Shown piece after piece: positions 3,094-16,209 of a DNA stretch of 25,607 bases (the stretch's first letter is position 1; the number at the start of each line of letters is the position of its first letter). The position numbers and the translations under genes were made by a program. Below the pieces are notes generated by a model. That model did no database searches. It saw only the letters and a program-made list of their open reading frames with translations, and was not told the DNA's origin. This DNA comes from Armatimonadota bacterium (lineage in GTDB: Bacteria; Armatimonadota; UBA5829; DTLH01). The stretch lies in contig JBBRAE010000034.1 of the NCBI GenBank assembly GCA_038207085.1, positions 1-25,607 of the forward strand, given 5' to 3'.

Positions 3094-3374
3094 CGAACGT
3101 ACACCAACCTCCAACCTCCATCCCCCGTACCAATACCGGTTCTTCTTCCAAACCCCTGTTATGTGCTCTAAAGCGGGGCAGGGTGTGGATTATCTATTAC
3201 AGGATCGTTATTGTGACGGGCCTATCAGGACTTGACGACTCGGCATCGGATACCTCGAAGCAGGGGTGGATAATCTGCCCGCTTTCACATCCCAAGCCGC
3301 GCGTCCCGGAGATTGTGCCGGGGCCGGAGCCGCCAATGTCGCTTGTGAAATACAGCTCTAAGGAGGTTCTAGAC

Positions 3375-4499
3375 GTGCTGTCTCAGCTATTTGGTAAGGA
3401 CACTATCGTCGGCATTGATGTCGGGAGCAGCTGCATTAAGGCGGTTGAAATTGAGGCCGCGGGCTCAGGCTGGCGCCTTGTCAACGCAGCCCTGCAGCCT
3501 ACGCCTCCCGACTGTTGCCGCGACGGAACAATCACTGACACTGTGGAAGTGGCTCAGGCGCTAAAAGCACTCCTCAAGTCCGCGGGGATCCGTGCGTCCG
3601 GTGGGATTGCGGCTATTTCCGGCTCACAGGTAATCGTTCGACAGGTGCAGATGCCCAAGATGAGTGAAGTGCAGCTGCGCAAATCGATCAGGTTTGAAGC
3701 AAACCGCTACATCTCTTCATCTATGGAAGATAGCGTCGTCGAGTTCGAGATCATAGGCAACGTGCCCGATTCGGAAATGATGAACGTGATGCTCGTGGCC
3801 GCTCCAAGAGAACTTGTGCAGGGACGCGTTGCCGTGCTTGAAGCCGCGGGAATCGAGCCCATCTCTGTAGACGTCGAAGCGTTCTCGCTTATGAGATCAC
3901 TTGTTGAGTCCGGGAACTCCGAAGCCTACAAAGGCCGCACCGTGGCCCTTGTGGACATGGGAGCCTCCCACACCGACGTTAACATTATCTCAAATAGAGA
4001 GTTCGCGCTCACCAGAAGCATCCCTATCGCAGGGGACAGCTTCACCAACGCGATTCGCACCCTTACGGGCTCGACCGTCGAAGATGCCGAACGCGTCAAG
4101 TTTGAGATGACCGGCGAAGAGTCGATCGACAGACTTGCATCAGGCGAAGGCGACACCAGAAGCTGGAGAGTCGTTCAGCCGCTGCTTGATGAACTCCTGC
4201 GCGAGATTCGCAGGTCTATGCACTACTATCAGTCACAGTTCCCTGAAGGCCAGGAGGCGACTTCGGTGTCGAAGATCATCCTCTCTGGTGGAGCTGCGAG
4301 AATGCCGGGGATGGCGGCCTATATGGAATCCAGGCTGACTGTTCCCACCGAGATGGGCAACCCCTTCTCCGAAGGCTTGATCGGACCCGGACAGTTTACA
4401 CAGGACTTTATCAACGAATATGGCCCCGTGCTTGCTGTGTGCGCCGGACTTGCGCTGAAAGAAGAGATGACGCGGACCAAGCAGCCGGTCGCCGCGTGA
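3375..4499 (+). CDS. pilM: Type IV pilus assembly protein PilM
   Basis: Actin-like fold motifs VGIDVGSSCIKAVE, LVDMGASHT and ILSGGAA. Start reassigned to GTG 3375 after AAGGAGG. Confidence 0.92.
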   Translation: MLSQLFGKDTIVGIDVGSSCIKAVEIEAAGSGWRLVNAALQPTPPDCCRDGTITDTVEVAQALKALLKSAGIRASGGIAAISGSQVIVRQVQMPKMSEVQLRKSIRFEANRYISSSMEDSVVEFEIIGNVPDSEMMNVMLVAAPRELVQGRVAVLEAAGIEPISVDVEAFSLMRSLVESGNSEAYKGRTVALVDMGASHTDVNIISNREFALTRSIPIAGDSFTNAIRTLTGSTVEDAERVKFEMTGEESIDRLASGEGDTRSWRVVQPLLDELLREIRRSMHYYQSQFPEGQEATSVSKIILSGGAARMPGMAAYMESRLTVPTEMGNPFSEGLIGPGQFTQDFINEYGPVLAVCAGLALKEEMTRTKQPVAA

Positions 4500-4518
4500 T
4501 CGGAAAGGAGATCAAACG

Positions 4519-5118
4519 ATGCCATCTATTAATATGATCTCTCCCAGACGCGCGGAAAAACGCCGTCTGGAATCGAATCTGCGCAGACTGCTGGTTGCGA
4601 TCGTCGTAGAGGTTATGGTCGTTCTGGGTGTCTCGGGGATGATGGTCCTCAAGATATCCTCGACCAAGGCGGATATCTCCGGCCTGAATGCCGATATCGA
4701 CAAACTGCGGCCTACGCTGAGCAAAATCGAGTACTACAACAAAGAGATCAGTACGCTTAAGCCCAAGCTCGATACACTGAACTTGGCAAAGTCCGACACC
4801 CTCAGGTGGAGGCGGGTCCTTGACGACCTGAGCGCGAGCCTGCCGCAGAAGACGTGGCTCACAAGGCTTGCGGCCCAGGCGCCTTCCGATGCCACCAAAC
4901 CTGAGATACTCGTCAGCTTGAGCGGAGTCTCGGCAAGCCAGCAGCTTGTTGGCGAGACGATGCTTCGCATGCAGGACAAGGTTTCAGACTTTGACAAGCT
5001 TGACCTGAACTTCACTCAGAAGGCCAATGCAGGCAGCAGGGATGCTGTTGAGTTCCAGGTTGCGGCTATAGTCAAACTAGTCGCGGAGAAAGACAAAAAG
5101 GAGGTGGAGAAAAGTTGA
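4519..5118 (+). CDS. pilN: Type IV pilus assembly protein PilN
   Basis: N-terminal INMI motif (INLLP-like PilM-binding motif), one TM helix, coiled coil, LPQKTWLT. Directly follows pilM. Confidence 0.85.
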   Translation: MPSINMISPRRAEKRRLESNLRRLLVAIVVEVMVVLGVSGMMVLKISSTKADISGLNADIDKLRPTLSKIEYYNKEISTLKPKLDTLNLAKSDTLRWRRVLDDLSASLPQKTWLTRLAAQAPSDATKPEILVSLSGVSASQQLVGETMLRMQDKVSDFDKLDLNFTQKANAGSRDAVEFQVAAIVKLVAEKDKKEVEKS

Positions 5119-5858
5119 CACTTCCAGCGTTTAAGGCCAGCAAGCAGTCAATCATAGTGCTTGCTGTGGTGGCCAGTGTAATATTCCTACTCGGTGGCTT
5201 TGCATACTTCATGACATCAAAGCAGCTTGGCACTGTTGTCGCTGAACGAGACGACAAGCAGCGGCAGTGGAATGATGGTAAGAAGGTAGCAAGCCAGCTG
5301 AAGCAGGCTGAAGCCAAGTGTCTTCAGGCGCAAAGCGATATCAGTTATCTTGAGACTTCGGTTACAAGCCAGAAGTATATTCCGACTATGCTGAAGCAGA
5401 TTGAGGTTCTTGCCTCATCGCTTCATCTCAATGTGGTTTCGGTGCGACCGCAGGTGCTGCCGCCCGCGCCTCCTCCTACGATCAAACGGACGAGCGAGGA
5501 TCCGCAGGCAGCCCCACAACCGGGTGACGCCTCCGCGGCTCCCAAGGTGATCGCGTCCAAGCCTTATGACGAGATGCTTGTGAACGTAGAGGTCGAGGGT
5601 TCTTATTGGAATGCGCGCAATTTCATCAGCCGCCTTACCAAGTTCCCCAAGATTCTGGCGGTAAGTGCGATCACTATGTCGCCGTCGGATACGAGCACGT
5701 CGATGAGTTCGCCAAAGCTTCTCGTGACGTTGAGCTTGAAGGCCTTTGTCTTCCCTGTGGAAGACAGTAAAAAGGACCAACCCAAGCCTGAGGTGAAGCC
5801 CTTGGATCCGAAGACGGAGTCCGCGAGGGGCGAAGGGAGGTCCTGCAATGAAGGATAA
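5115..5858 (+). CDS. pilO: Type IV pilus assembly protein PilO
   Basis: TM helix, coiled coil, IPTMLKQIE and VEVEGSYWN...FISRLTKFPKIL. Overlaps the pilN stop by 4 bp. Confidence 0.82.
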   Translation: MTLPAFKASKQSIIVLAVVASVIFLLGGFAYFMTSKQLGTVVAERDDKQRQWNDGKKVASQLKQAEAKCLQAQSDISYLETSVTSQKYIPTMLKQIEVLASSLHLNVVSVRPQVLPPAPPPTIKRTSEDPQAAPQPGDASAAPKVIASKPYDEMLVNVEVEGSYWNARNFISRLTKFPKILAVSAITMSPSDTSTSMSSPKLLVTLSLKAFVFPVEDSKKDQPKPEVKPLDPKTESARGEGRSCNEG

Positions 5859-6501
5859 CAAGCAGGTGCAGCAGATGATCGCGCTCGGCGTCCTTGTTAC
5901 GCTCTGTGTCGGCGTCTTTGCCTTCCAGATGCTTCGTGGCAAGCATTCTGCGCCGCCTTCATCCAAGGTCGTAGTCGGCAAGCCTGACACGTCAAAATCG
6001 GTTGCGCCGCCCGTAGGGGCAGGTCCGGCCGAGGGCGTAGAGGCCGTCGCTGTTGCTGAGGTGAAAGACGATGGGCTGATGATGGCTCCGACCGGACACG
6101 ATCCGTTTGCTCCGGCGATGGACACATCGATTCGTATTGGATCGAGCACACCGTCTCCGTTCAAGATAGCAAGCTCGAGGACTGGCGGCAGAGTCCCGAA
6201 GATGGACTCGTTCTTTGAGTTCAAGGGCGACAACAACGCCGCAATCGAGCCGCTTCCTCCGGTCAACCCGAATGCATCGGGAGGCCAGGGGCAAATGAGT
6301 CAGCCGACTCCGCAGTTCGTGTTGACCGGTGTTATCACAGGGGACGTGAACGTAGCCATAATCAGGCTGAACGATGAAAGGCACATAGTCCGCATAGGAC
6401 AAACTATAGACGGCGAATATAGAGTCGTCAACATAACGGGAAACAGTGTAAAACTGGCTTGGGAAGGCCACAACGACATAGTCTTGGTGCTAGGAGGCTA
6501 A
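5848..6501 (+). CDS. PilP/GspC-like membrane-anchored pilus assembly protein
   Basis: N-terminal TM helix, HDPF motif, Pro-rich linker and a C-terminal beta domain (FVLTGVITG...AII...HIVRIGQTIDG). Sits between pilO and the secretin. Confidence 0.65.
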   Translation: MKDNKQVQQMIALGVLVTLCVGVFAFQMLRGKHSAPPSSKVVVGKPDTSKSVAPPVGAGPAEGVEAVAVAEVKDDGLMMAPTGHDPFAPAMDTSIRIGSSTPSPFKIASSRTGGRVPKMDSFFEFKGDNNAAIEPLPPVNPNASGGQGQMSQPTPQFVLTGVITGDVNVAIIRLNDERHIVRIGQTIDGEYRVVNITGNSVKLAWEGHNDIVLVLGG

Positions 6502-6504
6502 GGG

Positions 6505-8181
6505 ATGCGACGAACATTTAGCGGGGCGGGACCCGTAAGCGTGGTTAGCTGCGCAATTATCCTTTTAACAACAGTAACTGGCGCTCTTGGAGCGTCCGCG
6601 GGAGTAAAATCGGACGACGCCTACTGCAAGGCTGCTCCGGTCATCTCTGAGCCGAGCGCTGTAAGAGCGCCGATCGGAGCAGGCGCGGCCACATACAGGC
6701 CGACCGATTACACTCCGCGCAATATCTGCCTGGACTTTCACGCCGCGGACATCGCGGACGTCCTGAAGGCGCTTTCAGTGCAATCGACATCAAACATCGT
6801 GACGAGCCCCGACGTAAAGGGTCAGGTTACGGTGAGTCTGAACAAAGTGACCTTTGGCGAGGCAATGGACACGATCACCAAGCTCGCCGGGCTGAAATAT
6901 GCGATGACCGGTTCCGACACCTACGTTGTAGGCTCGGCTGCCGCTGTCGCAAACGTTCAGGGAATCGCCTCACAGGAGTCGATTACCGCAACCATTCCGC
7001 TTGCTTATGCGAGCGGCAAGGACGTTATGAATACCCTGCAGGTTCGGTTCCCCGAGCTCAAGTGTGGTGCTCCTGAGAAGGAAGCCACAGCGGGTCAGAC
7101 TTCGTTTATCCTGCTTTCGGGACCCAGGGACACAGTCCAGGCCGCGAAGGAAGTGGTGCTCAGCATCGAGGAGGCCCTCAAAGCCGACGCCAATCTCAGA
7201 GTCTCAGAGGTCGTGGATTTGAGGTTCGCCAACGCCGATCAGGTGATCAAGGCGATAGCGCTTTCGTTCCCGACGGTTTCTGCTGTAGTCGGCCCTACCA
7301 CCGGCTTTACCCAGAGACCTCCGCAGAACATCACGTTCACTTCTGCGGGCTTGTCTACGAGCGATGCCTGGTCCAAGCAGGATCCTACCCAGGATGCAAA
7401 GAGCATTGTTCTTTGTGGAGACCCAATCCAGATCGCGAAGGCCAAGGCTATCATTGCCCAGATGGACATTAGACCCAAACAGGTGCTGATCGAGGCCAAG
7501 GTCGCGGACATCACTATTGGAGACGAAAAGCGCCTTGGAATCTCCTGGAGCTGGACTAGTATCGGCTTCAGCGAGAGGACCAACGACAACGGCGGCGGCA
7601 ACGGCAGTTTCACTCGCCTGCCGTTTGACATCGAAGGCTCGCTTGACGCGATGTTTGCCAATAACGATGCGAAGCTCCTTGCAAATCCGACTATTGCGAC
7701 CCTTGATGGCAGGTCAGCTACGGTGTTTATCGGCGACGAGCTGAAGTACGTCGTTGGCATTAACGTCGCCCCGAACGGACAGAGCACGTTCCAGACGGAA
7801 ACCGCGATTATCGGTATCACCCTGCGTGTTATCGCGCGGCCCGATTCGGACGGGTATATCACCCTTGCCCTGCATCCCGAGGTCAGCGCGATCTCCGACT
7901 GGCTCAGCTTCACCACCGGCACCGGCGGCAACAACAATGAAGGCCAGGTGGCTTTGCCTCAGATCGCTCGCCGCTACACCGACCACATGGTTCGTGTGCG
8001 CGACGGTGAGACGATTGCGATCGGCGGCTTGATCAGGGATCAGGAGATCAACAACCTGAGCAAGATACCGTTCCTCGGGGACCTTCCGTTCCTCGGCAAC
8101 CTGTTCAAGCACAGGGAAAAGACAAAGACTCACTCCGACGTTGCGATCTTCATCAAGGCGTCTGTTATGAAAGACTCGTAG
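6505..8181 (+). CDS. pilQ: Outer-membrane secretin (PilQ/GspD family)
   Basis: Signal-like N-terminus, N0/N-domain repeats, QVLIEAKV, LLANPTIATLDG, VRDGETIAIGGLI and KIPFLGDLPFLGNLFK. Called pilQ from operon context. Confidence 0.88.
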   Translation: MRRTFSGAGPVSVVSCAIILLTTVTGALGASAGVKSDDAYCKAAPVISEPSAVRAPIGAGAATYRPTDYTPRNICLDFHAADIADVLKALSVQSTSNIVTSPDVKGQVTVSLNKVTFGEAMDTITKLAGLKYAMTGSDTYVVGSAAAVANVQGIASQESITATIPLAYASGKDVMNTLQVRFPELKCGAPEKEATAGQTSFILLSGPRDTVQAAKEVVLSIEEALKADANLRVSEVVDLRFANADQVIKAIALSFPTVSAVVGPTTGFTQRPPQNITFTSAGLSTSDAWSKQDPTQDAKSIVLCGDPIQIAKAKAIIAQMDIRPKQVLIEAKVADITIGDEKRLGISWSWTSIGFSERTNDNGGGNGSFTRLPFDIEGSLDAMFANNDAKLLANPTIATLDGRSATVFIGDELKYVVGINVAPNGQSTFQTETAIIGITLRVIARPDSDGYITLALHPEVSAISDWLSFTTGTGGNNNEGQVALPQIARRYTDHMVRVRDGETIAIGGLIRDQEINNLSKIPFLGDLPFLGNLFKHREKTKTHSDVAIFIKASVMKDS

Positions 8182-8191
8182 ATACTTGTTA

Positions 8192-8222
8192 TGCGGGCCG
8201 TAGGTTAGTCCTGCGGCTCGCA
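8192..8222 (+). terminator. Terminator-like hairpin after the secretin gene
   Basis: TGCGGGCCGTAGG-TTAGT-CCTGCGGCTCGCA, a 13-bp stem with G-U pairs and a weak U-tail. Confidence 0.55.
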
Positions 8223-8466
8223 GGTATTTCGGGGAGTCCCGGCATACGGTTGCGCGAAAGCTGGGAGTCGGGCTATCGACAGCGGGTGACGTTTTGGGGT
8301 GACGGTGGGTGATGGGATTACTACCATAGGGTGAACGAATATTTGCGCTCCCACGTGGGTTTCACCCCTGCAGCGTCAGGCACTGACGACGTGTGTCCGC
8401 AATGGCCCATTTTGCTTGTCACCCGTTTTCATCCAAAAAACTCGCTAAGTTTATCTCCATCCCCTG

Positions 8467-8493
8467 AAAAAGTGGGGGGTGAAAAGCCGATAA
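8467..8493 (+). promoter_or_regulatory. Candidate sigma28 (FliA/WhiG)-type promoter upstream of pilB
   Basis: Exact -10 GCCGATAA at 8486-8493, with AAAA 15 bp upstream where the consensus has TAAA. Confidence 0.4.
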
Positions 8494-8603
8494 AACTGTA
8501 GGGAGCGCAATGCGGCAGGGACGCGCAGCGTTTCCGAAGTTCAACTGACATTTCAAAGGCCGTGCGATGGGCTTATGCGCCAGATCGCGCGGGGTGTACC
8601 AGG

Positions 8604-10331
8604 ATGGCAAGACCACAGGCTTTTGGTGATATTTGTACGCGGCTGGGCCTCATTAAGGATGACCAGCTTAAGCAGGCTCTCGAGAAGCAGAAGCAGCTCT
8701 CAACTGAGGAGTCTCTTGGCGACGTGCTCGTCAACATGGGCTATATATCCGAAAAGGACCGCATTCGGTGCCTGGGTGAGCAGTGGGGGGTCCCGTTCAT
8801 TGACCTGACGGACTTCGATCCCGAGCCTGATATACTGAAGCTTGTAAGCCAGGAAGTCGCGCGGCGTCAAAAGGTCGTCCCGATCAGCCGCACAGACGGC
8901 AAGTTGTCCCTTGCCATGAAGAACCCGCTCGATATCTTCGCGATCGACGAGATAAGGCTCGTCACGGGGATAGAAGTCGAGCCGATGATCGCGACCGAAG
9001 AAGACTTGGTCTCCACCATAAACCGGTGCTACCGCGCTGGAGCGGGCTCAAGAGAGGCCGTAAACGATGTCATCCGTGACCTTGAAGGTGAGCAGATCAG
9101 CTTTAGCCAGTCCGATGGCGACGATGACGAAGATATTTCAATTGAGCAGCTTCGGGAACTCTCCGAAGAGGCGCCGGTCATCAGGCTTGCCAACCTGATC
9201 ATCAGCCGGGCGGTAGCGGACGGCGCAAGTGATATCCACATAGAGCCTACCAAGGACTCGGTGCGGGTGCGCTACAGGATAGACGGCATCCTGCACGAAG
9301 GGCTTGCCGCGCCAAGGAAGATTCAGGCGTCGCTTACGTCGAGAATCAAGATTATGGCGGAGATGGATATCGCCGAGAAACGCGCACCTCAGGACGGACG
9401 AATCGGCGCTACGCTCGACGGTCGGCAGTTTGACTTCCGAGTCTCGACGCTGCCATCGGTCTATGGAGAGAAGATCGTTCTTCGAGTTCTCGATAAGAGT
9501 TCGATCTCGGTCGGCTTGAACAAGCTCGGGCTCCTGCCGGAAACCCTTGAGAAGTTCGAGAGCCTGATCCTACGAACATACGGAATTATTCTTGTAACGG
9601 GGCCTACGGGAAGCGGCAAATCGACGACGCTTTACTCGGTGCTTTCCAAGGTCAACTCCGGTGAGAAGAACATCTTGACGATCGAAGACCCGGTCGAGTA
9701 TGAGCTTGGCGGAATCACCCAGACCCAGGTGAACAACAAGGCCGGCATGACATTTGCCAGGGGCCTTAGAACGATGCTTCGCCAGGACCCGAACATTATC
9801 ATGGTCGGTGAGATTCGAGACCAGGAAACGGCGCTGATTGCGACTGAGGCGGCTCTAACCGGCCACCTCGTCCTTTCGACCCTTCACACCAACGACGCCC
9901 CAGGCGCCGTCACACGAATGGTCGATATGGAGGTCGAGCCGTTCTTGATCGCTTCGGCTGTAATAGGCGTGCTTGCCCAGCGGCTTGTGCGCGTGATCTG
10001 CCCGAAGTGCAAGGAGCAGTATAAGCCGCCGGTCGACGCGGTCAAGCGCCTTGGAATTTCAACCGACGATGGCTCGCCGGTCACGTTCTACCGTGGGAGA
10101 GGCTGCGACCACTGCAAGGGCAGCGGTTACAAGGGCCGAATCGGCGTCTATGAGCTTATGCTGATAAACGACAGCGTCCGCGATCTGATCCTGAAGAGGT
10201 CGTCCTCCTACGAGATCAGGGATGCCGCGATCAAGGCGGGTATGAAGACGCTCAAAGAAGACGCGATGGAGAAAATCTTGCTCGGAACGACATCCCTTGA
10301 GGAGTCGCTGCGGGTTATCTATTCGGGCTAG
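8604..10331 (+). CDS. pilB: Type IV pilus extension ATPase PilB (GspE/PulE family) with MshEN-like N-terminus
   Basis: ASDIHIEP, Walker A GPTGSGKS, TIEDPVE, LRQDPNIIMVGEIRD, TGHLVLSTLHTND and zinc motif CPKC...CDHC. Start set at ATG 8604. Confidence 0.93.
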   Translation: MARPQAFGDICTRLGLIKDDQLKQALEKQKQLSTEESLGDVLVNMGYISEKDRIRCLGEQWGVPFIDLTDFDPEPDILKLVSQEVARRQKVVPISRTDGKLSLAMKNPLDIFAIDEIRLVTGIEVEPMIATEEDLVSTINRCYRAGAGSREAVNDVIRDLEGEQISFSQSDGDDDEDISIEQLRELSEEAPVIRLANLIISRAVADGASDIHIEPTKDSVRVRYRIDGILHEGLAAPRKIQASLTSRIKIMAEMDIAEKRAPQDGRIGATLDGRQFDFRVSTLPSVYGEKIVLRVLDKSSISVGLNKLGLLPETLEKFESLILRTYGIILVTGPTGSGKSTTLYSVLSKVNSGEKNILTIEDPVEYELGGITQTQVNNKAGMTFARGLRTMLRQDPNIIMVGEIRDQETALIATEAALTGHLVLSTLHTNDAPGAVTRMVDMEVEPFLIASAVIGVLAQRLVRVICPKCKEQYKPPVDAVKRLGISTDDGSPVTFYRGRGCDHCKGSGYKGRIGVYELMLINDSVRDLILKRSSSYEIRDAAIKAGMKTLKEDAMEKILLGTTSLEESLRVIYSG

Positions 10332-10372
10332 CTCGCATCATTCACTTCACGAATAGTCGGGCTGGTAATGAC

Positions 10373-11521
10373 ATGTTGGGGGAAATGGATACACGCATGG
10401 ACGCATTTGCTCTGGACAATATTGACGGGTACGCAACCGAGGCAGTGACCAGGTCAGTCGACCACGTTCACATTGACGATCTCCTGCGGGAGACCGTGGA
10501 ACGCGGCGCGTCGGACCTGCATATCTCTGTAGGGCTTCCCCCGACTATCCGAATCGACGGCAAGCTCGTGCATCTTGATTATCAGCCGCTCACTCCAAGT
10601 GAGACTCAGAGAGTAATGTACGATATTCTGTCTTCAGACCAGATCCAGTGGTTTGAGAAGACCCGGGAGCTCGACTTCTCTTACGGCGTAAGTGATGTCG
10701 GGCGCTTCAGGGTGAACGTGTATCGCCAGAGGAGCAGCGTCGGAGCTGCACTTCGGTCGATCCCGGCCCAGATTCCGTCAATGGAGCAGCTTCACCTGCC
10801 AAATATCCTTAGGGATCTTTGCAGAAAGCACAGTGGACTCATTCTCGTGACCGGCGCAACCGGAAGCGGCAAGTCGACCACCATTGCCTGTATGGTCGAC
10901 CATATCAACTCAGAGCGCGAGGTCCACATCATGACGATTGAGGACCCGATCGAGTATCTGCACCGGCACAAACGCGCGATGGTGAACCAGAGGGAGCTAA
11001 ACAGCGACACCGACTCCTTCGAAAACGCGCTTCGTGCGGTTCTCCGAGAAGACCCGGACGTGATTTTGGTCGGAGAAATGCGCGACCTTGAGACAATTTC
11101 CGCGGCGCTAACGCTTGCTGAGACCGGACACCTCGTGTTTGGCACTCTGCACACCAGAAACGCGCCGCAGGCGGTGGACAGGATGGTAGACGTCTTCCCA
11201 CCCCACCAGCAAGACCAGGTCAGGGTGATTCTTTCCAACACCCTGGAGGCTATAGTAGCCCAGCAGCTTCTGCCACGAATGGGTGGCGGCCGAGTAGCCG
11301 CCATCGAAGTCATGACCGCAACTTCCGCGGTTAGGAACCTCATAAGAGAAGGCAAGACCTTCCAACTGACATCGGTGATCGAAACGGGAGGCCAGTTGGG
11401 GATGCAGTCCATGGACAAAGTCCTTGCGGAACTGGTCCGAAACGGCAACGTGAACAAGGAAGAAGCTTTGACCCGGGCCATCGATCCCGAGAACTACCAG
11501 AGGTTCCTCCAGGGAGGCTAG
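10373..11521 (+). CDS. pilT: Type IV pilus retraction ATPase PilT
   Basis: ASDLHI, GATGSGKS, TIEDPIE, LREDPDVILVGEMRD, AETGHLVFGTLHT and AVRNLIRE (AIRNLIRE motif). The start could instead be 10385 or 10397. Confidence 0.95.
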   Translation: MLGEMDTRMDAFALDNIDGYATEAVTRSVDHVHIDDLLRETVERGASDLHISVGLPPTIRIDGKLVHLDYQPLTPSETQRVMYDILSSDQIQWFEKTRELDFSYGVSDVGRFRVNVYRQRSSVGAALRSIPAQIPSMEQLHLPNILRDLCRKHSGLILVTGATGSGKSTTIACMVDHINSEREVHIMTIEDPIEYLHRHKRAMVNQRELNSDTDSFENALRAVLREDPDVILVGEMRDLETISAALTLAETGHLVFGTLHTRNAPQAVDRMVDVFPPHQQDQVRVILSNTLEAIVAQQLLPRMGGGRVAAIEVMTATSAVRNLIREGKTFQLTSVIETGGQLGMQSMDKVLAELVRNGNVNKEEALTRAIDPENYQRFLQGG

Positions 11522-11523
11522 TA

Positions 11524-12729
11524 ATGTCGGTATTTATGTACACCGTGGTTGACACCGCGGGACGGACCGTGAAGGGTCGTATGGAGGCTGATAGCGAGCA
11601 GCTCGTTATGAACAAGCTGCATGAGCAGAACCTCCATATCCTGGGCGTCAACAGAGGCAAGGAAGCCAAGAAAGCTCCTACCTTTGGCAAGAAAAAAGTG
11701 AAGCTGAAGTCGATGGTGATCTTCAGCAGGCAGTTCTCGACGATGATCGACGCGGGAGTCTCCGTCGTGCGCTGCCTTGACATTCTGGAGTCGCAGTCAA
11801 AAGACGAGGTGTTGAAAGCCGCTGTCGGGCAGTGCAAGCGTGACGTAAAGTCGGGCCTGTCGCTTACCGATGCGTTCGGTAAGCACCCCAATGTCTTTTC
11901 CAGGCTCTATGTGAACATGGTCCGTGCGGCTGAGACCGGCGGTATTCTCGACCAGATTCTCGATAGGCTGGCGGGATTTCTTGAAACAGAGGACGAGATC
12001 AAAACCAAGATCAAGTCCGCTATGACTTATCCGATTCTAGTGCTATCGTTTTCTGGGATTATGGTGATGTCGCTCTTTATGTTCGTTCTGCCGAAGTTCA
12101 AAGAGATCTTTGTCAGCATGAACGTGAAACTGCCTCTTGCAACCAGGCTGCTCTTTGATGCCAGCGCGATATTGAGGAATAACTGGTGGCTCTTGGCGAT
12201 TCTCGCGATTGGTGGGCCTATCGCTTACAGGATGTACGCCAAGACCGACAAGGGGCGATATCAGATCGACCTGATCAAATTGAAGGTCCCGGTGGTCGGG
12301 GAGCTCGTTCAAAAAATAGCGGTCTCCCGGTTCTCCCGGACTTTCGCGACCTTGATTGCAAGCGGTGTGCCAATGATGCGCTCGCTTGAGATCGTCGGTG
12401 AGACGTCTGGAAACGTAGTTATCGCAAAAGCCGTAAGCAGCGCGAGGACTTCGATCCGCGAGGGTCAGAAGATCAGTGCTCCGCTTGCAGCAAGCGGGCT
12501 TTTCCCGCACATGGTTACGCATATGATCGACGTTGGTGAGGAGACCGGAAGGCTTTCCGAGATGCTCATCAAGGTCTCTGACTTCTATGACCGTGAGGTC
12601 GACTCCGCCGTAAAGGCTCTGACATCGCTTATCGAGCCTTGCCTTATCGTAGTCCTTGGCGGAATCGTCGGTTTTATCGCGGTCTCGATTATGGCGCCGA
12701 TCTTCAAGCTCGTGAGCGCCATCGGCTAA
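11524..12729 (+). CDS. pilC: Type IV pilus inner-membrane platform protein PilC (GspF family)
   Basis: FSRQFSTMIDAG, AAETGG, KIKSAMTYP, GEETGRL and LIEP motifs. Confidence 0.93.
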   Translation: MSVFMYTVVDTAGRTVKGRMEADSEQLVMNKLHEQNLHILGVNRGKEAKKAPTFGKKKVKLKSMVIFSRQFSTMIDAGVSVVRCLDILESQSKDEVLKAAVGQCKRDVKSGLSLTDAFGKHPNVFSRLYVNMVRAAETGGILDQILDRLAGFLETEDEIKTKIKSAMTYPILVLSFSGIMVMSLFMFVLPKFKEIFVSMNVKLPLATRLLFDASAILRNNWWLLAILAIGGPIAYRMYAKTDKGRYQIDLIKLKVPVVGELVQKIAVSRFSRTFATLIASGVPMMRSLEIVGETSGNVVIAKAVSSARTSIREGQKISAPLAASGLFPHMVTHMIDVGEETGRLSEMLIKVSDFYDREVDSAVKALTSLIEPCLIVVLGGIVGFIAVSIMAPIFKLVSAIG

Positions 12730-12734
12730 GAAGC

Positions 12735-12804
12735 GCAGAGTTCAGAGTGCAGAGTCGGGATAGATTTGTCCATACTCTGAACTCTTCACTCTGAACTCTG
12801 AACT
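12735..12804. repeat. Inverted heptamer tandem repeats (NCAGAGT x3 / ACTCTGA-like x4)
   Basis: gcagagt tcagagt gcagagt ... actctga actcttc actctga actctga. The two blocks are complementary. Confidence 0.8.
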
Positions 12805-12847
12805 TGTGAATAAGGAGTGCGCCCGACCCGAGGCGCGAAATGATGGT

Positions 12848-14191
12848 ATGATGCAGCCCGATCGCAGACGAAAGATAAATGAAGAGGGAGTTCAGGTCTT
12901 GCTGGCCGAGTACACCAGAACAAAGGATGTGCGGGTTCGCGACAAGATAGTACTCCAGTACAACAACCTCGTGGAGAGCATTGCGCGCAGGTTCTCGGGG
13001 GCTTTGGAGCCCGTGGAGGATCTGGCACAGGAGGGTTACATCGGCCTGATTACGGCCGTTGACCTATATGACGCCTCCAAGGGCGTGAAGTTTTCCACCT
13101 ACGCGACGCACTTTGTCATCGGACAGATCAAGCACTACCTCCGGGACAAGGGCAAGATCATCAAGGAACCGGCCTGGCTTCAGGAGATCAACCAGAAGAT
13201 GAGCCGGGTGATCGACTCGCTCGCCCAGAAGGACGGCAGGCCGCCCACCGAGGCTGAGATTGCCACGGTGATGGGTCTTCCAGAGGAGCAGGTCGCCGAA
13301 ATGCTGACGACGCGCGAGGTGTTCAAAGTATCATCCCTTGACAGCACTCTGGAGCGCGACGACGGCACCGGCACCGGAGGCACGGTAGACCCTGAGAAGA
13401 TCAAGGACAATAGGACAACAAGCTTCCAGCTTCCGCTCGAGGACAAGATCGTTCTTGAGACGGCTATGGAGCGGCTAAAAGACATCGAGCAGCAGGTGAT
13501 CCAGCACTTTTTCTTTGCTGACTTGAATCAGACAGAGATCGCGAAGAAGCTTGGCATCTCGTGCAATTATGTGTCACATATCTTGAGGAACAGCACGAAG
13601 AAGCTTAAGAAGATCCTGATGACCGATGAGATCCGTGACACCCAGATCCAGGCCACTCAGTTTTCTCGGCGTGTGACAGACCAGAACCGCGTCGCCGGGC
13701 ACCTGACCGTGGTAGACGGCCTGACCGGCATCTACAACCGACGCTATTATCTTGATCGTCTGAGCGAGGAAATCACACGCGCCAGCCGCTACGGGCATCC
13801 CGTAAGCGTGCTCCTTGCGAGGATAACGCTCCCCGAGAGCGTAGGCAAGCTCGCGAGGCTCATTCGCACCGACGACGTGATCCAGCAGGCCTCCGAACGC
13901 ATCCGCGGCTCGGTAAGAAAGGCCGATGTGATCGCAAGGATCGAAGACAACGTCTTCGCCCTGATCCTGCCCCACACCGGGCTTCAGGCCGAGCATGTGG
14001 CTTCAAGGGTTGAAAATATCCTCGGAGCAGAGGCGTTTGTGTCGCCGCACACGGGTGAATCGGTAAGGGCCGAGGTCCAGGTTGCCTGGGCAAGCTACCC
14101 AGAGCATGCCGGAACTGCCCGGAATCTGCTCTCAGCTGCGACCGACTCGCTTGAGATGGAAGACCTCTACGCACTGCCGCTTGCAGCTTAG
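12848..14191 (+). CDS. SigB/SigF/SigG-family RNA polymerase sigma factor fused to a degenerate C-terminal GGDEF domain
   Basis: Region 2 EDLAQEGYIGL...FSTYATHFVIGQIKHYLRD, region 3 RPPTEAEIA, region 4 NQTEIAKKLGISCNYVSHI. Then DGLTGIYNRR...RKAD-VIARI-EDNVF. Start ATG 12848 chosen by resemblance to SigB N-termini; the ORF track opens at GTG 12806. Confidence 0.9.
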   Translation: MMQPDRRRKINEEGVQVLLAEYTRTKDVRVRDKIVLQYNNLVESIARRFSGALEPVEDLAQEGYIGLITAVDLYDASKGVKFSTYATHFVIGQIKHYLRDKGKIIKEPAWLQEINQKMSRVIDSLAQKDGRPPTEAEIATVMGLPEEQVAEMLTTREVFKVSSLDSTLERDDGTGTGGTVDPEKIKDNRTTSFQLPLEDKIVLETAMERLKDIEQQVIQHFFFADLNQTEIAKKLGISCNYVSHILRNSTKKLKKILMTDEIRDTQIQATQFSRRVTDQNRVAGHLTVVDGLTGIYNRRYYLDRLSEEITRASRYGHPVSVLLARITLPESVGKLARLIRTDDVIQQASERIRGSVRKADVIARIEDNVFALILPHTGLQAEHVASRVENILGAEAFVSPHTGESVRAEVQVAWASYPEHAGTARNLLSAATDSLEMEDLYALPLAA

Positions 14192-14203
14192 TAAGTGCTA
14201 AAT

Positions 14204-14257
14204 ATGTTGGGTGGCGATTCGGAAATCGCCACCCAACATGAATCGCCACCCAACATG
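14204..14257. terminator. Perfect 16-bp hairpin with a duplicated right arm between convergent genes
   Basis: ATGTTGGGTGGCGATT-CGGA-AATCGCCACCCAACAT. The 17-mer AATCGCCACCCAACATG occurs at 14224-14240 and again at 14241-14257. Confidence 0.65.
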
Positions 14258-14277: not shown

Positions 14278-16209
14278 CTACCCGACGATCACCCTCATCA
14301 CCGCGGTGTCGTCGCGCATCGAGGTGACGCGGAGGTCGTCGATGTGGCTTACTAGATCTTCGGTGGACATCTGGCCCTGGGACATTTTAGCGCTGTAGAT
14401 GTTGATCAGCCCGATCAGGTCCAGGAAGCCATCTTTGCACTTTACTTCTACCAGCCCATCGGTTGCGAGGAGTATCTCGTCGCCTGTTTGGAGGGTGATC
14501 GTGTTTTCGGTGTAGGTGGCGAAGTCGATCGCGCCGACGATCGGGCCGGTTGGCTCAAGCTGGGTGATGGTGCGGTCCGCGTCGTGCCACACGAGGACCG
14601 GCTCGTGGCCGCCGTTTGCGTAGGTGAGCGTGCGATCTGTGCAGTCGAGGATGCCGAGGAACACCGTTACGAAGCTGTCCTCTTCGCTGTCCATCGCAAA
14701 CGCCTTGTTCAGTAGGGTGAGCATCGCGGCGGGGCTTTCGCTGTCGCACGCGGTGCCTCGAAGCGAGTATTTCGCCATAGCCATCTGGACCGCAGCGCGA
14801 AGCCCTTTGCCGGAAACATCCCCAATCACGATCCCGATCTTGCCGTCGCCGACAGGGAACACGTCATAGAAATCCCCCCCGATCCTGATCTCTTCAAAGG
14901 CCGCGCGGTAGATGGTCTCAAACCTGAAGCTGCCGATTCTCTCCGGGACGACGCCCAGGAGCCCGGTCTGGAGCGCCTCCGCGATCTTGTGCTCGCGCTC
15001 GTAGCTCGTTTGGAGTACCCCGCGGGCTTTCACCTGCTCAGTCACTTCAACAGCGACGATCCCTACGCCGATCATCTCCCCGTCGGACCGGCGCACGGGG
15101 ATGAACTCCGCGTCGAAGAACCGCTCCTCAGGGCGGCAGAACACGAACTCGTTCCAGGTGATGATCTCGCCTGTCGCAAGCACCTGATCGACCGCCTTTT
15201 CGGTGAGCTTTCCTCCGTCTCTGTGCCACACCTCGCTTGGGCGCTTGCCGACCGCCCCTTCGGTCGACACGCCGATCATCTCGGCTATCGCGCCGTTTGC
15301 GATGGAGAGCCTGCCTTCCATGTCAAGAAACGCAAGGCCTATCGGCACATCCCTGACAAACATGTCGAGCAGCGCGTTCTGCTCATCGATTCGGGTCTGC
15401 ATCTTGTGATGTGTGGTCACGTCCCTAATGACGACGACCGCACCTGTTATTGCGCCTGCGGGATTTCTGATCGGTGCGGCGGTAGCTCCTACGACGGTGT
15501 TTGGTCCGCTTTGTCCGTTCAAGATGTAAAGTTCTTCGGCGATTGATTGCCCGAGCATCGCCCGATTGACGGGGTGTTCCTGCATGCGAAGCGGCGTTCC
15601 GTTCATGCGTCGGACGTTTGCCATCTTGACCCAGGCGTCGAGTGGCTGTCCGACCTGACGGTTGAGCGGAACCATACGCTCGACGGTGGCGTTTGCGTAG
15701 GTGACGTAGAGGTCGGTGTCGACGACGATCACGCCGCCTGCCATACTTGAGAGGATGACCTCAAGCTCGGTGCGGCGTTGGTCCGCCGACTGTTTTGCCA
15801 CGGTGAGCTGGTCTGCAAAGGAGCGGACACGCCTGTTGGACCTGCGAATGAGCGAGGTAGCGAACCCGACTACGGCGGTTCCGAGCAGGAACGCGACAAG
15901 CCTCGCCCAGCTCTCCGTTCGCTCTGCGACGGGCCACAGTCCGTCCGGGAGCACGAAGAAGTAGGTGAAAGCGAGCATGCCGGTGACGAAGGCGACCACA
16001 GCCGGCCCTTCGCCAAAGAGGTAGGCGACGGCCATGATCAACAGGACATACGAGATAGGAAAACCGCCGAGTGGGAAATATGGCTGCAGTGCCAAGAGCC
16101 CTGCTGTAACCAACGCTTCAAGTGCAAGCGTCACCACATACCCCAACCATCGCGGCGCTATCACGTGTCCCTTCTCATCTGATGTTGCCCCGTACGAGGT
16201 TCCCGACAT
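14278..16209 (-). CDS. SpoIIE/RsbU-family PP2C phosphatase with N-terminal membrane sensor (DUF4118-like) and two PAS-like domains
   Basis: About four TM helices, then two PAS-like segments ending in IRDVT and VEVTE, then PP2C motifs IGGDFYD, GDVSGKG, ANGGHEP, LATDGL and RDDTA. Confidence 0.88.
   Translation of the reverse strand: MSGTSYGATSDEKGHVIAPRWLGYVVTLALEALVTAGLLALQPYFPLGGFPISYVLLIMAVAYLFGEGPAVVAFVTGMLAFTYFFVLPDGLWPVAERTESWARLVAFLLGTAVVGFATSLIRRSNRRVRSFADQLTVAKQSADQRRTELEVILSSMAGGVIVVDTDLYVTYANATVERMVPLNRQVGQPLDAWVKMANVRRMNGTPLRMQEHPVNRAMLGQSIAEELYILNGQSGPNTVVGATAAPIRNPAGAITGAVVVIRDVTTHHKMQTRIDEQNALLDMFVRDVPIGLAFLDMEGRLSIANGAIAEMIGVSTEGAVGKRPSEVWHRDGGKLTEKAVDQVLATGEIITWNEFVFCRPEERFFDAEFIPVRRSDGEMIGVGIVAVEVTEQVKARGVLQTSYEREHKIAEALQTGLLGVVPERIGSFRFETIYRAAFEEIRIGGDFYDVFPVGDGKIGIVIGDVSGKGLRAAVQMAMAKYSLRGTACDSESPAAMLTLLNKAFAMDSEEDSFVTVFLGILDCTDRTLTYANGGHEPVLVWHDADRTITQLEPTGPIVGAIDFATYTENTITLQTGDEILLATDGLVEVKCKDGFLDLIGLINIYSAKMSQGQMSTEDLVSHIDDLRVTSMRDDTAVMRVIVG

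Follow-up and report, generated by a model that had tools for sequence, protein, structure and literature searches.

A conserved Armatimonadota sigma factor fused to a degenerate GGDEF domain that keeps its I-site: a candidate c-di-GMP-gated sigma factor of a type IV pilus circuit

INTRODUCTION

Cyclic di-GMP (c-di-GMP) reaches transcription either through ordinary transcription factors or, in Actinobacteria, through an anti-sigma factor that can hold its sigma factor only with the help of the messenger. PopA, PelD, and SgmT are c-di-GMP receptors of a different sort, degenerate GGDEF domains that bind the messenger through the I-site. In Rubrobacter, a (RsiG)2-(c-di-GMP)2-WhiG complex is described through which c-di-GMP, by way of a separate anti-sigma factor, governs both a group-3 sigma factor and type IV pili; the described output of WhiG comprises genes for type IV pili and also for cyclases and phosphodiesterases (PMC8325347). 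The Streptomyces counterpart is described as an RsiG-(c-di-GMP)2-WhiG complex (PMC7005675). In cyanobacteria, the group-3 factor SigF is reported to transcribe the pilin gene pilA1 (PMC2532724), and certain extracytoplasmic function (ECF) sigma factors, which belong to group 4 and have no region 3, are described as carrying C-terminal extensions that are SnoaL-like, made of tetratricopeptide repeats, or Cys rich (PMC8999054). Here we analyze a gene in a 25,607-nt stretch of DNA from an Armatimonadota bacterium (contig JBBRAE010000034.1; the whole stretch is called the window) that encodes a sigma factor and a GGDEF domain in one polypeptide, and we compare it with these systems. An earlier note, made from the letters of this DNA alone, had singled out the gene as a candidate sigma factor that senses c-di-GMP directly.

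We propose, as the probable reading of the evidence below, that the protein is a group-3 (SigB/SigF-like) sigma factor gated in cis by c-di-GMP at the I-site and working within a pilus circuit. The earlier note knew of no characterized sigma factor of this kind, and a full-text literature search, judged by titles and the starts of abstracts and with most subscription journals outside its reach, likewise returned no paper describing a sigma-GGDEF fusion. One paper containing both GGDEF and Sigma70_r2 uses Sigma70_r2, in the available part of its text, only to find ECF factors. The fusion is apparently an undescribed combination of two known modules.

RESULTS

One reading frame encodes sigma regions 2 to 4 and a GGDEF domain

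The sigma-GGDEF gene (Table 1) occupies a single, uninterrupted open frame on the + strand, 12806 to 14191, the upstream limit of which is a GTG codon at 12806. An alternative gene call of 430 amino acids (P0002) would, by arithmetic, start near a TTG codon at 12899. ATG 12848 is the likely start because homologs align from residues 2 to 8 of the 447-amino-acid form. Pfam found Sigma70 regions 2, 3, and 4, each scoring over its cutoff, followed by a GGDEF domain, and the domain scan that the earlier note had suggested thereby bore out its description of one frame holding sigma regions 2 to 4 and then GGDEF. The protein is assigned to group 3, and not to the ECF sigma factors, because region 3 is present. 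The best NCBIfam model was that of SigB/F/G (TIGR02980), at 183.3 bits and under the curated cutoff of 234.35, such that the protein is not a member by the NCBI threshold; the second best was NF005644, named SigF, at 173 bits, and the FliA/WhiG model TIGR02479 scored 116.7 bits against a cutoff of 189.6.

The I-site is kept and the catalytic site is lost

HMMER alignment to PleD (E value, 4e-11) paired RKAD (residues 357 to 360) with RAID (359 to 362) and EDNVF (366 to 370) with GGEEF (368 to 372). The same alignment paired R325 with D327, G333 with N335, and R387 with R390, and the positions of PleD K442 and R446 are taken by L440 and P444. The earlier note had placed the start of the GGDEF fold (DGLTGIYNRR) at 13715, which is residue 290, and EDNVF at 13943 to 13957 in the position of the active site (A-site); both coordinates were correct, as was its reading of the first metal-binding strand as LLARITL (residues 322 to 328). 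Its coordinates for RKAD (13916 to 13927) were right too, and its spacing of this motif five residues before the A-site, as for RAID in PleD, was confirmed by the alignment.

Conservation was followed in two sets, each including the query: a close set of 120 homologs and a distant set of 71 aligned representatives, 69 of which had the motif columns present. R357, D360, R364, and R387 were invariant in the close homologs (120/120), whereas GG[DE]EF occurred in none of them (0/120), the commonest A-site form was GETSF, and the counterpart of the metal-binding Asp (PleD D327) was Asp in only 38 of the 120. The distant representatives kept RxxD in 63 of 69 cases and R387 in 64, against 0 of 69 for GG[DE]EF, and the persistence of RxxD beside a decayed A-site, which the earlier note had proposed to check, therefore held at both depths. 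Residue by residue among the 71, R357 was Arg in 63, D360 was Asp in 67, and R387 was Arg in 64; the counterparts of PleD D327, N335, G369, E370, E371, K442, and R446 varied freely in the distant representatives, with no preferred residue.

Across 68 diverse homologs, the whole protein had only 12 invariant columns, among them R357 and D360. The other ten lie at residues 58 to 110, in or just after sigma region 2 (eight inside it), and the region 4 stretch ISCNYVSHILRN, which is the region 4.2 helix, was invariant in the 120 close homologs. By these counts the sigma part is under strong constraint. A kept I-site together with lost catalysis is the pattern expected of a c-di-GMP I-site receptor, and not of an enzyme or a decaying relic. 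We conclude from the alignments that the GGDEF domain is predicted to make c-di-GMP no longer and to retain the I-site pocket formed by R357, D360, and R387.

A pocket of this kind might instead bind another nucleotide (ppGpp, a cyclic dinucleotide other than c-di-GMP, or, at what remains of the A-site, GTP) and report that signal, which we consider quite improbable. PleD D327, N335, K442, and R446 bind metal, base, and phosphates; the free variation of their counterparts makes a conserved GTP site unlikely, and the residues that are conserved are those of the c-di-GMP I-site. Points that speak for another nucleotide are the counterpart of PleD D344, a guanine-binding residue, which is Asp or Glu in 120 of 120 close homologs, and PDB entry 9g85, by its title a structure of PleD that contains c-di-GMP as well as ppGpp.

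The fusion recurs across the phylum

A word-indexed protein search listed 120 matches (53 to 86% identity, about 445 amino acids), all of which carry the three sigma domains and GGDEF, and the named members among them are Armatimonadota metagenome bins. When 1.84 billion cluster representatives (50% identity) were searched without a filter, 70 of the 150 listed, plus the query, have a GGDEF-like C-terminal domain, and identity among the matches falls to about 31%. Homologs of the same architecture, a search for which the earlier note had recommended, were thus found among both close and distant relatives. A scan of one genome per species gave 80 loci, which fall in Chthonomonadales, Fimbriimonadales, Armatimonadales, Capsulimonadaceae, Abditibacteria, and other groups; two of them are labeled Actinomycetes or Actinomycetota, yet an Armatimonadota-like pilC adjoins in both. 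When residues 200 to 447 were searched against 141 sampled Armatimonadota genomes at an E value threshold of 1e-20, 81 genomes matched, and in 80 of these the match spans region 4, the linker, and GGDEF in open frames of about 400 to 560 amino acids. The genome of the window holds a single copy of the fusion.

When 137 sigma domains were placed on a maximum-likelihood tree, the 61 fused rows all fell into one clade of 93 rows (Shimodaira-Hasegawa-like approximate likelihood ratio test [SH-aLRT], 98), outside which were left 44 unfused SigB/F-like factors. In the other 32 rows of the clade, some of them fragments and some of them proteins with an unassigned tail 140 to 220 residues long, no GGDEF domain was detected. 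A count of 25 gains and losses of the fusion on this tree was discarded as not meaningful, several of the "unfused" rows being fragments or long-tailed proteins.

Public contigs carry the same junction. A 4,991-nt contig from run X1, possibly the source sample, covers 12700 to 14238 with zero differences, and a 239-nt contig from a second sample, X2, spans the junction (13561 to 13799), also with zero differences. The earlier note had allowed that the fusion might prove absent or split elsewhere; it is intact in related genomes and in the contigs of both samples. That the protein retains weak diguanylate cyclase activity, or that the fusion is an assembly or frameshift artifact, is in our judgment extremely improbable: the well-preserved fold would suit a cyclase, but GG[DE]EF is missing from both homolog sets and the metal-binding Asp is replaced, and an artifact would hardly recur in hundreds of independent assemblies and be bridged at its junction by contigs from two samples. 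We conclude, from comparison of the genomes, that the sigma-GGDEF fusion is a real, old, and conserved gene and not an artifact.

A continuous helix is predicted between region 4.2 and GGDEF

An AlphaFold2 model was built from a 68-row alignment (mean predicted local distance difference test [pLDDT] score, 86.2; predicted template modeling [pTM] score, 0.50). In the model, residues 239 to 284 form a single helix, such that the recognition helix of region 4.2 runs through the linker up to the start of GGDEF. The earlier note was right that a linker joins the two parts, but it had called the linker short, and it is instead about 30 residues long and, in the model, one helix with the last helix of region 4.2. 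Polar residues of the linker are nearly fixed in the close homologs (T259 and E261, 119/120 each; Q266, 118/120; R275, 117/120). We note that the strongly conserved polar face of this helix, which also includes R263, D264, and Q268, matches no known motif. The RsiG motif E(X)3S(X)2R(X)3Q(X)3D had no match in the sigma-GGDEF protein, conservative substitutions allowed, the rest of the genome not having been searched for RsiG.

The modeled GGDEF part superimposed on PleD (9g85_C) at 1.9 Å over 155 columns and on 4urs_A with a target-normalized TM score of 0.80 in a fold search with the model, which also retrieved the stalk-helix cyclases SiaD, DgcR, and WspR. Because the pTM score is low, the placement of GGDEF relative to the sigma domains is not predicted, and occlusion of region 4 by GGDEF is neither supported nor excluded by the model. 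A dimer prediction with two copies of residues 236 to 447 and two c-di-GMP molecules scored 0.28, where the mark for an answer was 0.42.

The C terminus bears on the foremost rival explanation, in which c-di-GMP binds the I-site and the output is the stability or location of the sigma factor, through exposure of a terminal Ala-Ala to a ClpXP-type protease or through recruitment to the pilus machine. C-terminal Ala-Ala is a recognition signal of the ClpX protease, and recruitment to the pilus machine can be likened to the behavior of the degenerate-GGDEF receptors PopA and SgmT. All 120 close homologs end in Ala-Ala (mostly K/R-K/R-A-A), as do 22 of the 71 distant representatives, the I-site is conserved as it is for gating in cis, and the model shows no confident docking of GGDEF onto the sigma domains. 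The remaining 49 of the 71 representatives end otherwise, however, such that a degron cannot be the family-wide mechanism. For comparison with the ssrA tag, ARAGORN found no tmRNA in 83 contigs, and all matches to Rfam RF00023 were below the cutoff. We regard an output through stability or location as unlikely, with a modest chance of being correct.

Anti-sigma factors and c-di-GMP turnover in the genome

Pfam detected no anti-sigma gene in the window, the RsbW/SpoIIAB kinase type included, and none was found among 28 neighbor proteins from 13 loci without pilC. Elsewhere in the genome, 23 matches to RsbW-like kinases were found, about ten of them small proteins. An unfused SigB/F paralog (C15:13273-13998, − strand) is 40% identical to residues 13 to 258 of the fused protein and has an RsbW-type kinase gene directly upstream (C15:14057-14419). 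We note that this pairing of paralog and kinase is the classical arrangement and that it is lacking at the fused gene.

The number of such kinases is one ground for supposing that the dead GGDEF domain is an interaction or dimerization module or a relic that binds no nucleotide and that unlinked partner-switching proteins control the sigma factor. Other grounds are the PAS-PP2C phosphatase gene that adjoins (14278 to 16209), the members of the clade with tails in which GGDEF is not recognizable, and the resemblance of helix plus GGDEF to the stalk-plus-GGDEF cyclases SiaD and DgcR in the fold search. A module or relic, however, would not be expected to keep exactly three I-site residues while every catalytic position drifts. 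Moreover, a PP2C match occurred in only 1 of the 80 loci, where it lies elsewhere in the locus, and no anti-sigma gene adjoins the fusion in the loci examined. We hold this explanation to be improbable, with a small chance of being correct.

The genome also encodes 13 GGDEF matches, 10 of which have both RxxD and GG[DE]EF, and three EAL domains. The intact cyclase domains and the EAL domains indicate that c-di-GMP is made and degraded by the organism's own enzymes.

The gene is linked to a type IV pilus cluster

The sigma-GGDEF gene is the last gene of a same-strand type IV pilus cluster (Table 1). The pilC gene lies immediately upstream on the same strand at 41 of the 80 related loci and is divergent at one more, and at several of the remaining loci the upstream DNA was too short to judge. 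Neighbors were mixed at the 13 loci without pilC, three of which, in Abditibacteria, share an upstream gene for an AI-2E transporter. No prepilin motif was found in the window. In other Armatimonadota families, the sigma-GGDEF gene has a pilin gene no more than about 400 nt downstream at loci L051, L054, and L078, and, judged by coordinates, a pilin also follows in G133, G058, G083, G115, G045, G032, G124, and G002.

In Vulcanimicrobiota, the gene between pilC and a pilin gene encodes a relative that is not fused (46% identity over residues 18 to 262; L072:2972-4493, also L077). This relative has an acidic N-terminal extension of about 80 residues, AATGGGTATAT occurs upstream of its pilin gene, and a membrane protein that resembles a prepilin peptidase is encoded downstream. 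The position of this unfused relative beside pilus genes suggests that a pilus-linked SigF-like factor predates the fusion.

PilB, encoded at 8562 to 10331, carries an MshEN domain (residues 75 to 160, 82.6 bits). Domains of the MshEN family bind c-di-GMP in MshE-type ATPases, and by analogy the pilus cluster may have a second entry point for the messenger at PilB. We propose that the sigma-GGDEF gene belongs to a type IV pilus circuit and that pilus genes such as that of the major pilin are its most likely targets.

At L078:3580-4773, the same DNA as G071, a fused member has SVTY in place of RxxD, and three pilin genes come after it in tandem; a TATGGAATA box precedes each of at least the first two.

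Candidate promoters of the pilus genes

The octamer GCCGATAA, present upstream of pilB (Table 1), is given as the −10 consensus of flagellar and WhiG promoters (PMC8325347). Upstream of pilB at other loci, it was exact in L017 and L039, had one mismatch in L018, L019, and L092, and was absent in L046, L054, L062, and L085. Two sigma factors of the genome score over the FliA/WhiG cutoff. In all, 17 GCCGATAA sites lie outside long open frames, and the genes behind them include one for a GAF-GGDEF-REC-HD-GYP protein and one for a MotA/ExbB protein. The exact octamer and the two FliA/WhiG-type sigma factors together suggest that pilB-pilT-pilC may be driven by a sigma factor of that type. The pilB-pilT-pilC unit, and perhaps the sigma gene too, may therefore be under a candidate FliA/WhiG-type promoter, the inclusion of the sigma gene being conditional on read-through across the repeat-family hairpin that separates it from pilC.

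In other Armatimonadota families, a bipartite motif, CATCTCA-N18-TGGAATAA, occurs in the gaps between sigma-GGDEF and pilin genes, with conserved boxes and a diverged spacer. The −10-like box or a near variant was present in 19 of 52 regions upstream of pilin-like genes, at 17 of 30 loci. The exact bipartite pattern gave nine matches in five genomes, compared with none for the reversed control, and five of the nine are those same pilin promoters. In G187 and G178, the exact motif also stands before a mixed group of further genes. Their products are a binding protein, a MerR-like protein, a large secreted protein, and one unknown protein, and no clear regulon is apparent. An initial GG in the −10 box is in keeping with a group-3 sigma factor. 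In cyanobacteria, the pilA1 promoter used by SigF is described with GGTAA at −12 (PMC2532724).

A relaxed bipartite search in the genome of the window gave 31 matches, compared with 5 for the reversed control, most of them inside long open frames. The region 4.2 helix differs between lineages (ISCNYVSHILRN versus ISVNYASYLLRR), and a different −35 box is therefore possible in the lineage of the window. We conclude that the bipartite motif, whichever sigma factor reads it, supports the pilin gene as a likely target in some lineages only. For autoregulation, the pattern TGG[AG]A[TAC]A was absent from the intergenic stretch upstream of the sigma gene and occurred in 2 of 77 upstream regions, both about 190 to 200 nt upstream and probably inside pilC.

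Features of the locus and its flanks

Features are collected in Table 1. Both hairpins that flank the gene belong to dispersed families of palindromic repeats, one copy of which also lies upstream of a pilin gene at C24:26136. The hairpin between pilC and the sigma gene was considered as a specific regulatory RNA and rejected as a member of a dispersed repeat family. The convergent PAS-PP2C gene was likewise considered as a conserved partner and set aside as incidental because of its recurrence in a single locus of the 80.

TABLE 1 Coordinates of the sigma-GGDEF gene, its domains and motifs, and flanking features (window positions unless a locus is named)
Feature	Position	Strand	Residues	Remarks
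Type IV pilus cluster: pilM, pilN, pilO, pilP-like, pilQ secretin, pilB (MshEN), pilT, pilC	3183..12729	+		Pfam; upstream of the sigma gene
Exact GCCGATAA (FliA/WhiG −10 consensus)	8486..8493	+		68 nt before the pilB start at 8562
Hairpin separating pilC from the sigma gene	12736..12800	+		−51.8 kcal/mol, z −5.4; arm in 18 genome copies with ≤1 mismatch
Sigma-GGDEF fusion gene	12848..14191	+		447 amino acids plus stop (P0001); stop codon 14189-14191
Sigma70_r2 (PF04542)	12950..13156	+	35-103	64.8 bits; core binding, −10 recognition
Sigma70_r3 (PF04539)	13193..13366	+	116-173	42.9 bits
Acidic, Gly-rich loop at the boundary of regions 3 and 4	13328..13420	+	161-191	pLDDT <50
Sigma70_r4 (PF04545)	13463..13612	+	206-255	46.8 bits; helix-turn-helix for the −35 element
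Linker	13613..13708	+	256-287	Predicted helix, conserved polar residues
Degenerate GGDEF domain (PF00990)	13709..14152	+	288-435	71.4 bits; cutoff 23.8
I-site RxxD motif, RKAD (R357, D360)	13916..13927	+	357-360	Aligned to PleD R359-D362
Decayed A-site EDNVF, replacing GG(D/E)EF	13943..13957	+	366-370	PleD alignment
R387, counterpart of PleD R390 (third primary I-site residue)	14006..14008	+	387	PleD alignment
C-terminal Ala-Ala	14183..14188	+		Conserved in close homologs
Palindrome just past the stop codon, between convergent genes	14206..14237			32 genome copies with ≤1 mismatch
Convergent gene with DUF4118, two PAS domains, and PP2C (SpoIIE)	14278-16209	−		RsbU/RsbP-like architecture
Promoter-like motif CATCTCA-N18-TGGAATAA	L051:8400-8430, L054:8395-8425, L112-L123, others			Before major pilin genes

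DISCUSSION

Proposed gating in cis and what weighs against it

In the proposed mechanism, c-di-GMP from the cell's own cyclases would bind the I-site pocket (R357, D360, and R387), and binding would shift the position or the pairing of the C-terminal GGDEF domain. A conserved helix is predicted to join the last DNA-binding helix of the sigma factor to GGDEF, and the sigma factor might thereby toggle between active and inactive forms without a separate anti-sigma factor. Within this reading we infer nucleotide binding, an effect on the binding of RNA polymerase or promoter, the direction of control, and the regulon.

Several observations weigh against it. RxxD is missing in 6 of the 69 distant representatives (four HxxD, one PxxP, and one SxxY), and the conserved I-site residues could serve another ligand. 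The model, at a pTM score of 0.50, has no confident contact between GGDEF and the sigma domains, region 4 included. Within the fused clade, P0137, P0190, P0199, P0200, P0205, P0213, P0229, and P0232 have C-terminal tails of 140 to 220 residues without a Pfam match, and these tails may be further-decayed GGDEF domains or replacements. One of the roughly ten small RsbW-like kinases could still act on the fused sigma factor. In the phylum survey, 60 of 141 genomes gave no match, among them all those sampled from families f7 (0/12), f19 (0/5), f21 (0/4), and f24 (0/4). The pilin promoter motif was not found within 350 nt of any of 15 pilin-like genes in the genome of the window, and in genomes of the same order the pilin genes come after a second pilC-like gene with no gap for a promoter, the motif not being found there either.

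The separate lines can also be joined into a fuller picture, which we offer tentatively, as possible rather than probable. Among sigma factors, the protein would be the first to act as a second-messenger receptor itself, and its GGDEF domain, joined rigidly by a conserved helix to the −35 recognition helix, would be moved or paired by c-di-GMP at the I-site and thereby switch binding to promoter or core directly, without an anti-sigma factor. In the lineage of the window it may stand in a cascade: pilB-pilT-pilC and the sigma gene would be transcribed from a promoter of the FliA/WhiG type, and the gated sigma factor would then set the expression of pilin and other surface-behavior genes. The design is kept across much of the phylum.

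Were gating in cis correct, no path from messenger to promoter choice could be shorter than a sigma factor that itself holds a c-di-GMP pocket. Such a factor would also extend the idea of a one-component sigma factor from the ECF group to group 3, add a new class of output to the degenerate GGDEF receptors, and give a first handle on the control of pili and surface behavior in a little-studied phylum. The family is large and its key residues are known beforehand, and cultured Armatimonadota exist, in which the proposal may be directly testable.

Comparison with known systems

Cyanobacterial SigF, compared here by its description, is like the present protein a SigF-like group-3 factor tied to pilin expression and motility. 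It differs in that no sensor domain is mentioned for it in the available part of its description (PMC2532724). ECF sigma factors that bear an extension at the C terminus offer a likeness in concept, since they too have no linked anti-sigma factor and the extension takes over sensing and regulation. The present protein has region 3, unlike ECF factors, and is not a member of that group, and neither GGDEF nor c-di-GMP occurs in the text of the ECF review (PMC8999054).

On the receptor side, the domain shares with PopA, PelD, and SgmT a dead A-site, RxxD five residues upstream of it, and the counterpart of PleD R390. The outputs of those receptors are a receiver domain, a membrane or GAF module, and a kinase, and none is a sigma factor.

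The RsiG-WhiG systems likewise join c-di-GMP to a group-3 sigma factor. The pilus cluster of the window has a −10 box of the FliA/WhiG type, and the set of genes linked to GCCGATAA resembles the WhiG regulon described for Rubrobacter. The sigma factor itself scores higher as SigB/F (183 bits) than as FliA/WhiG (117 bits). Moreover, in RsiG-WhiG it is a separate coiled-coil anti-sigma factor that binds the messenger, by means of E(X)3S(X)2R(X)3Q(X)3D motifs, whereas in the present protein, which is without that motif, the candidate sensor is a GGDEF I-site joined covalently to the sigma factor.

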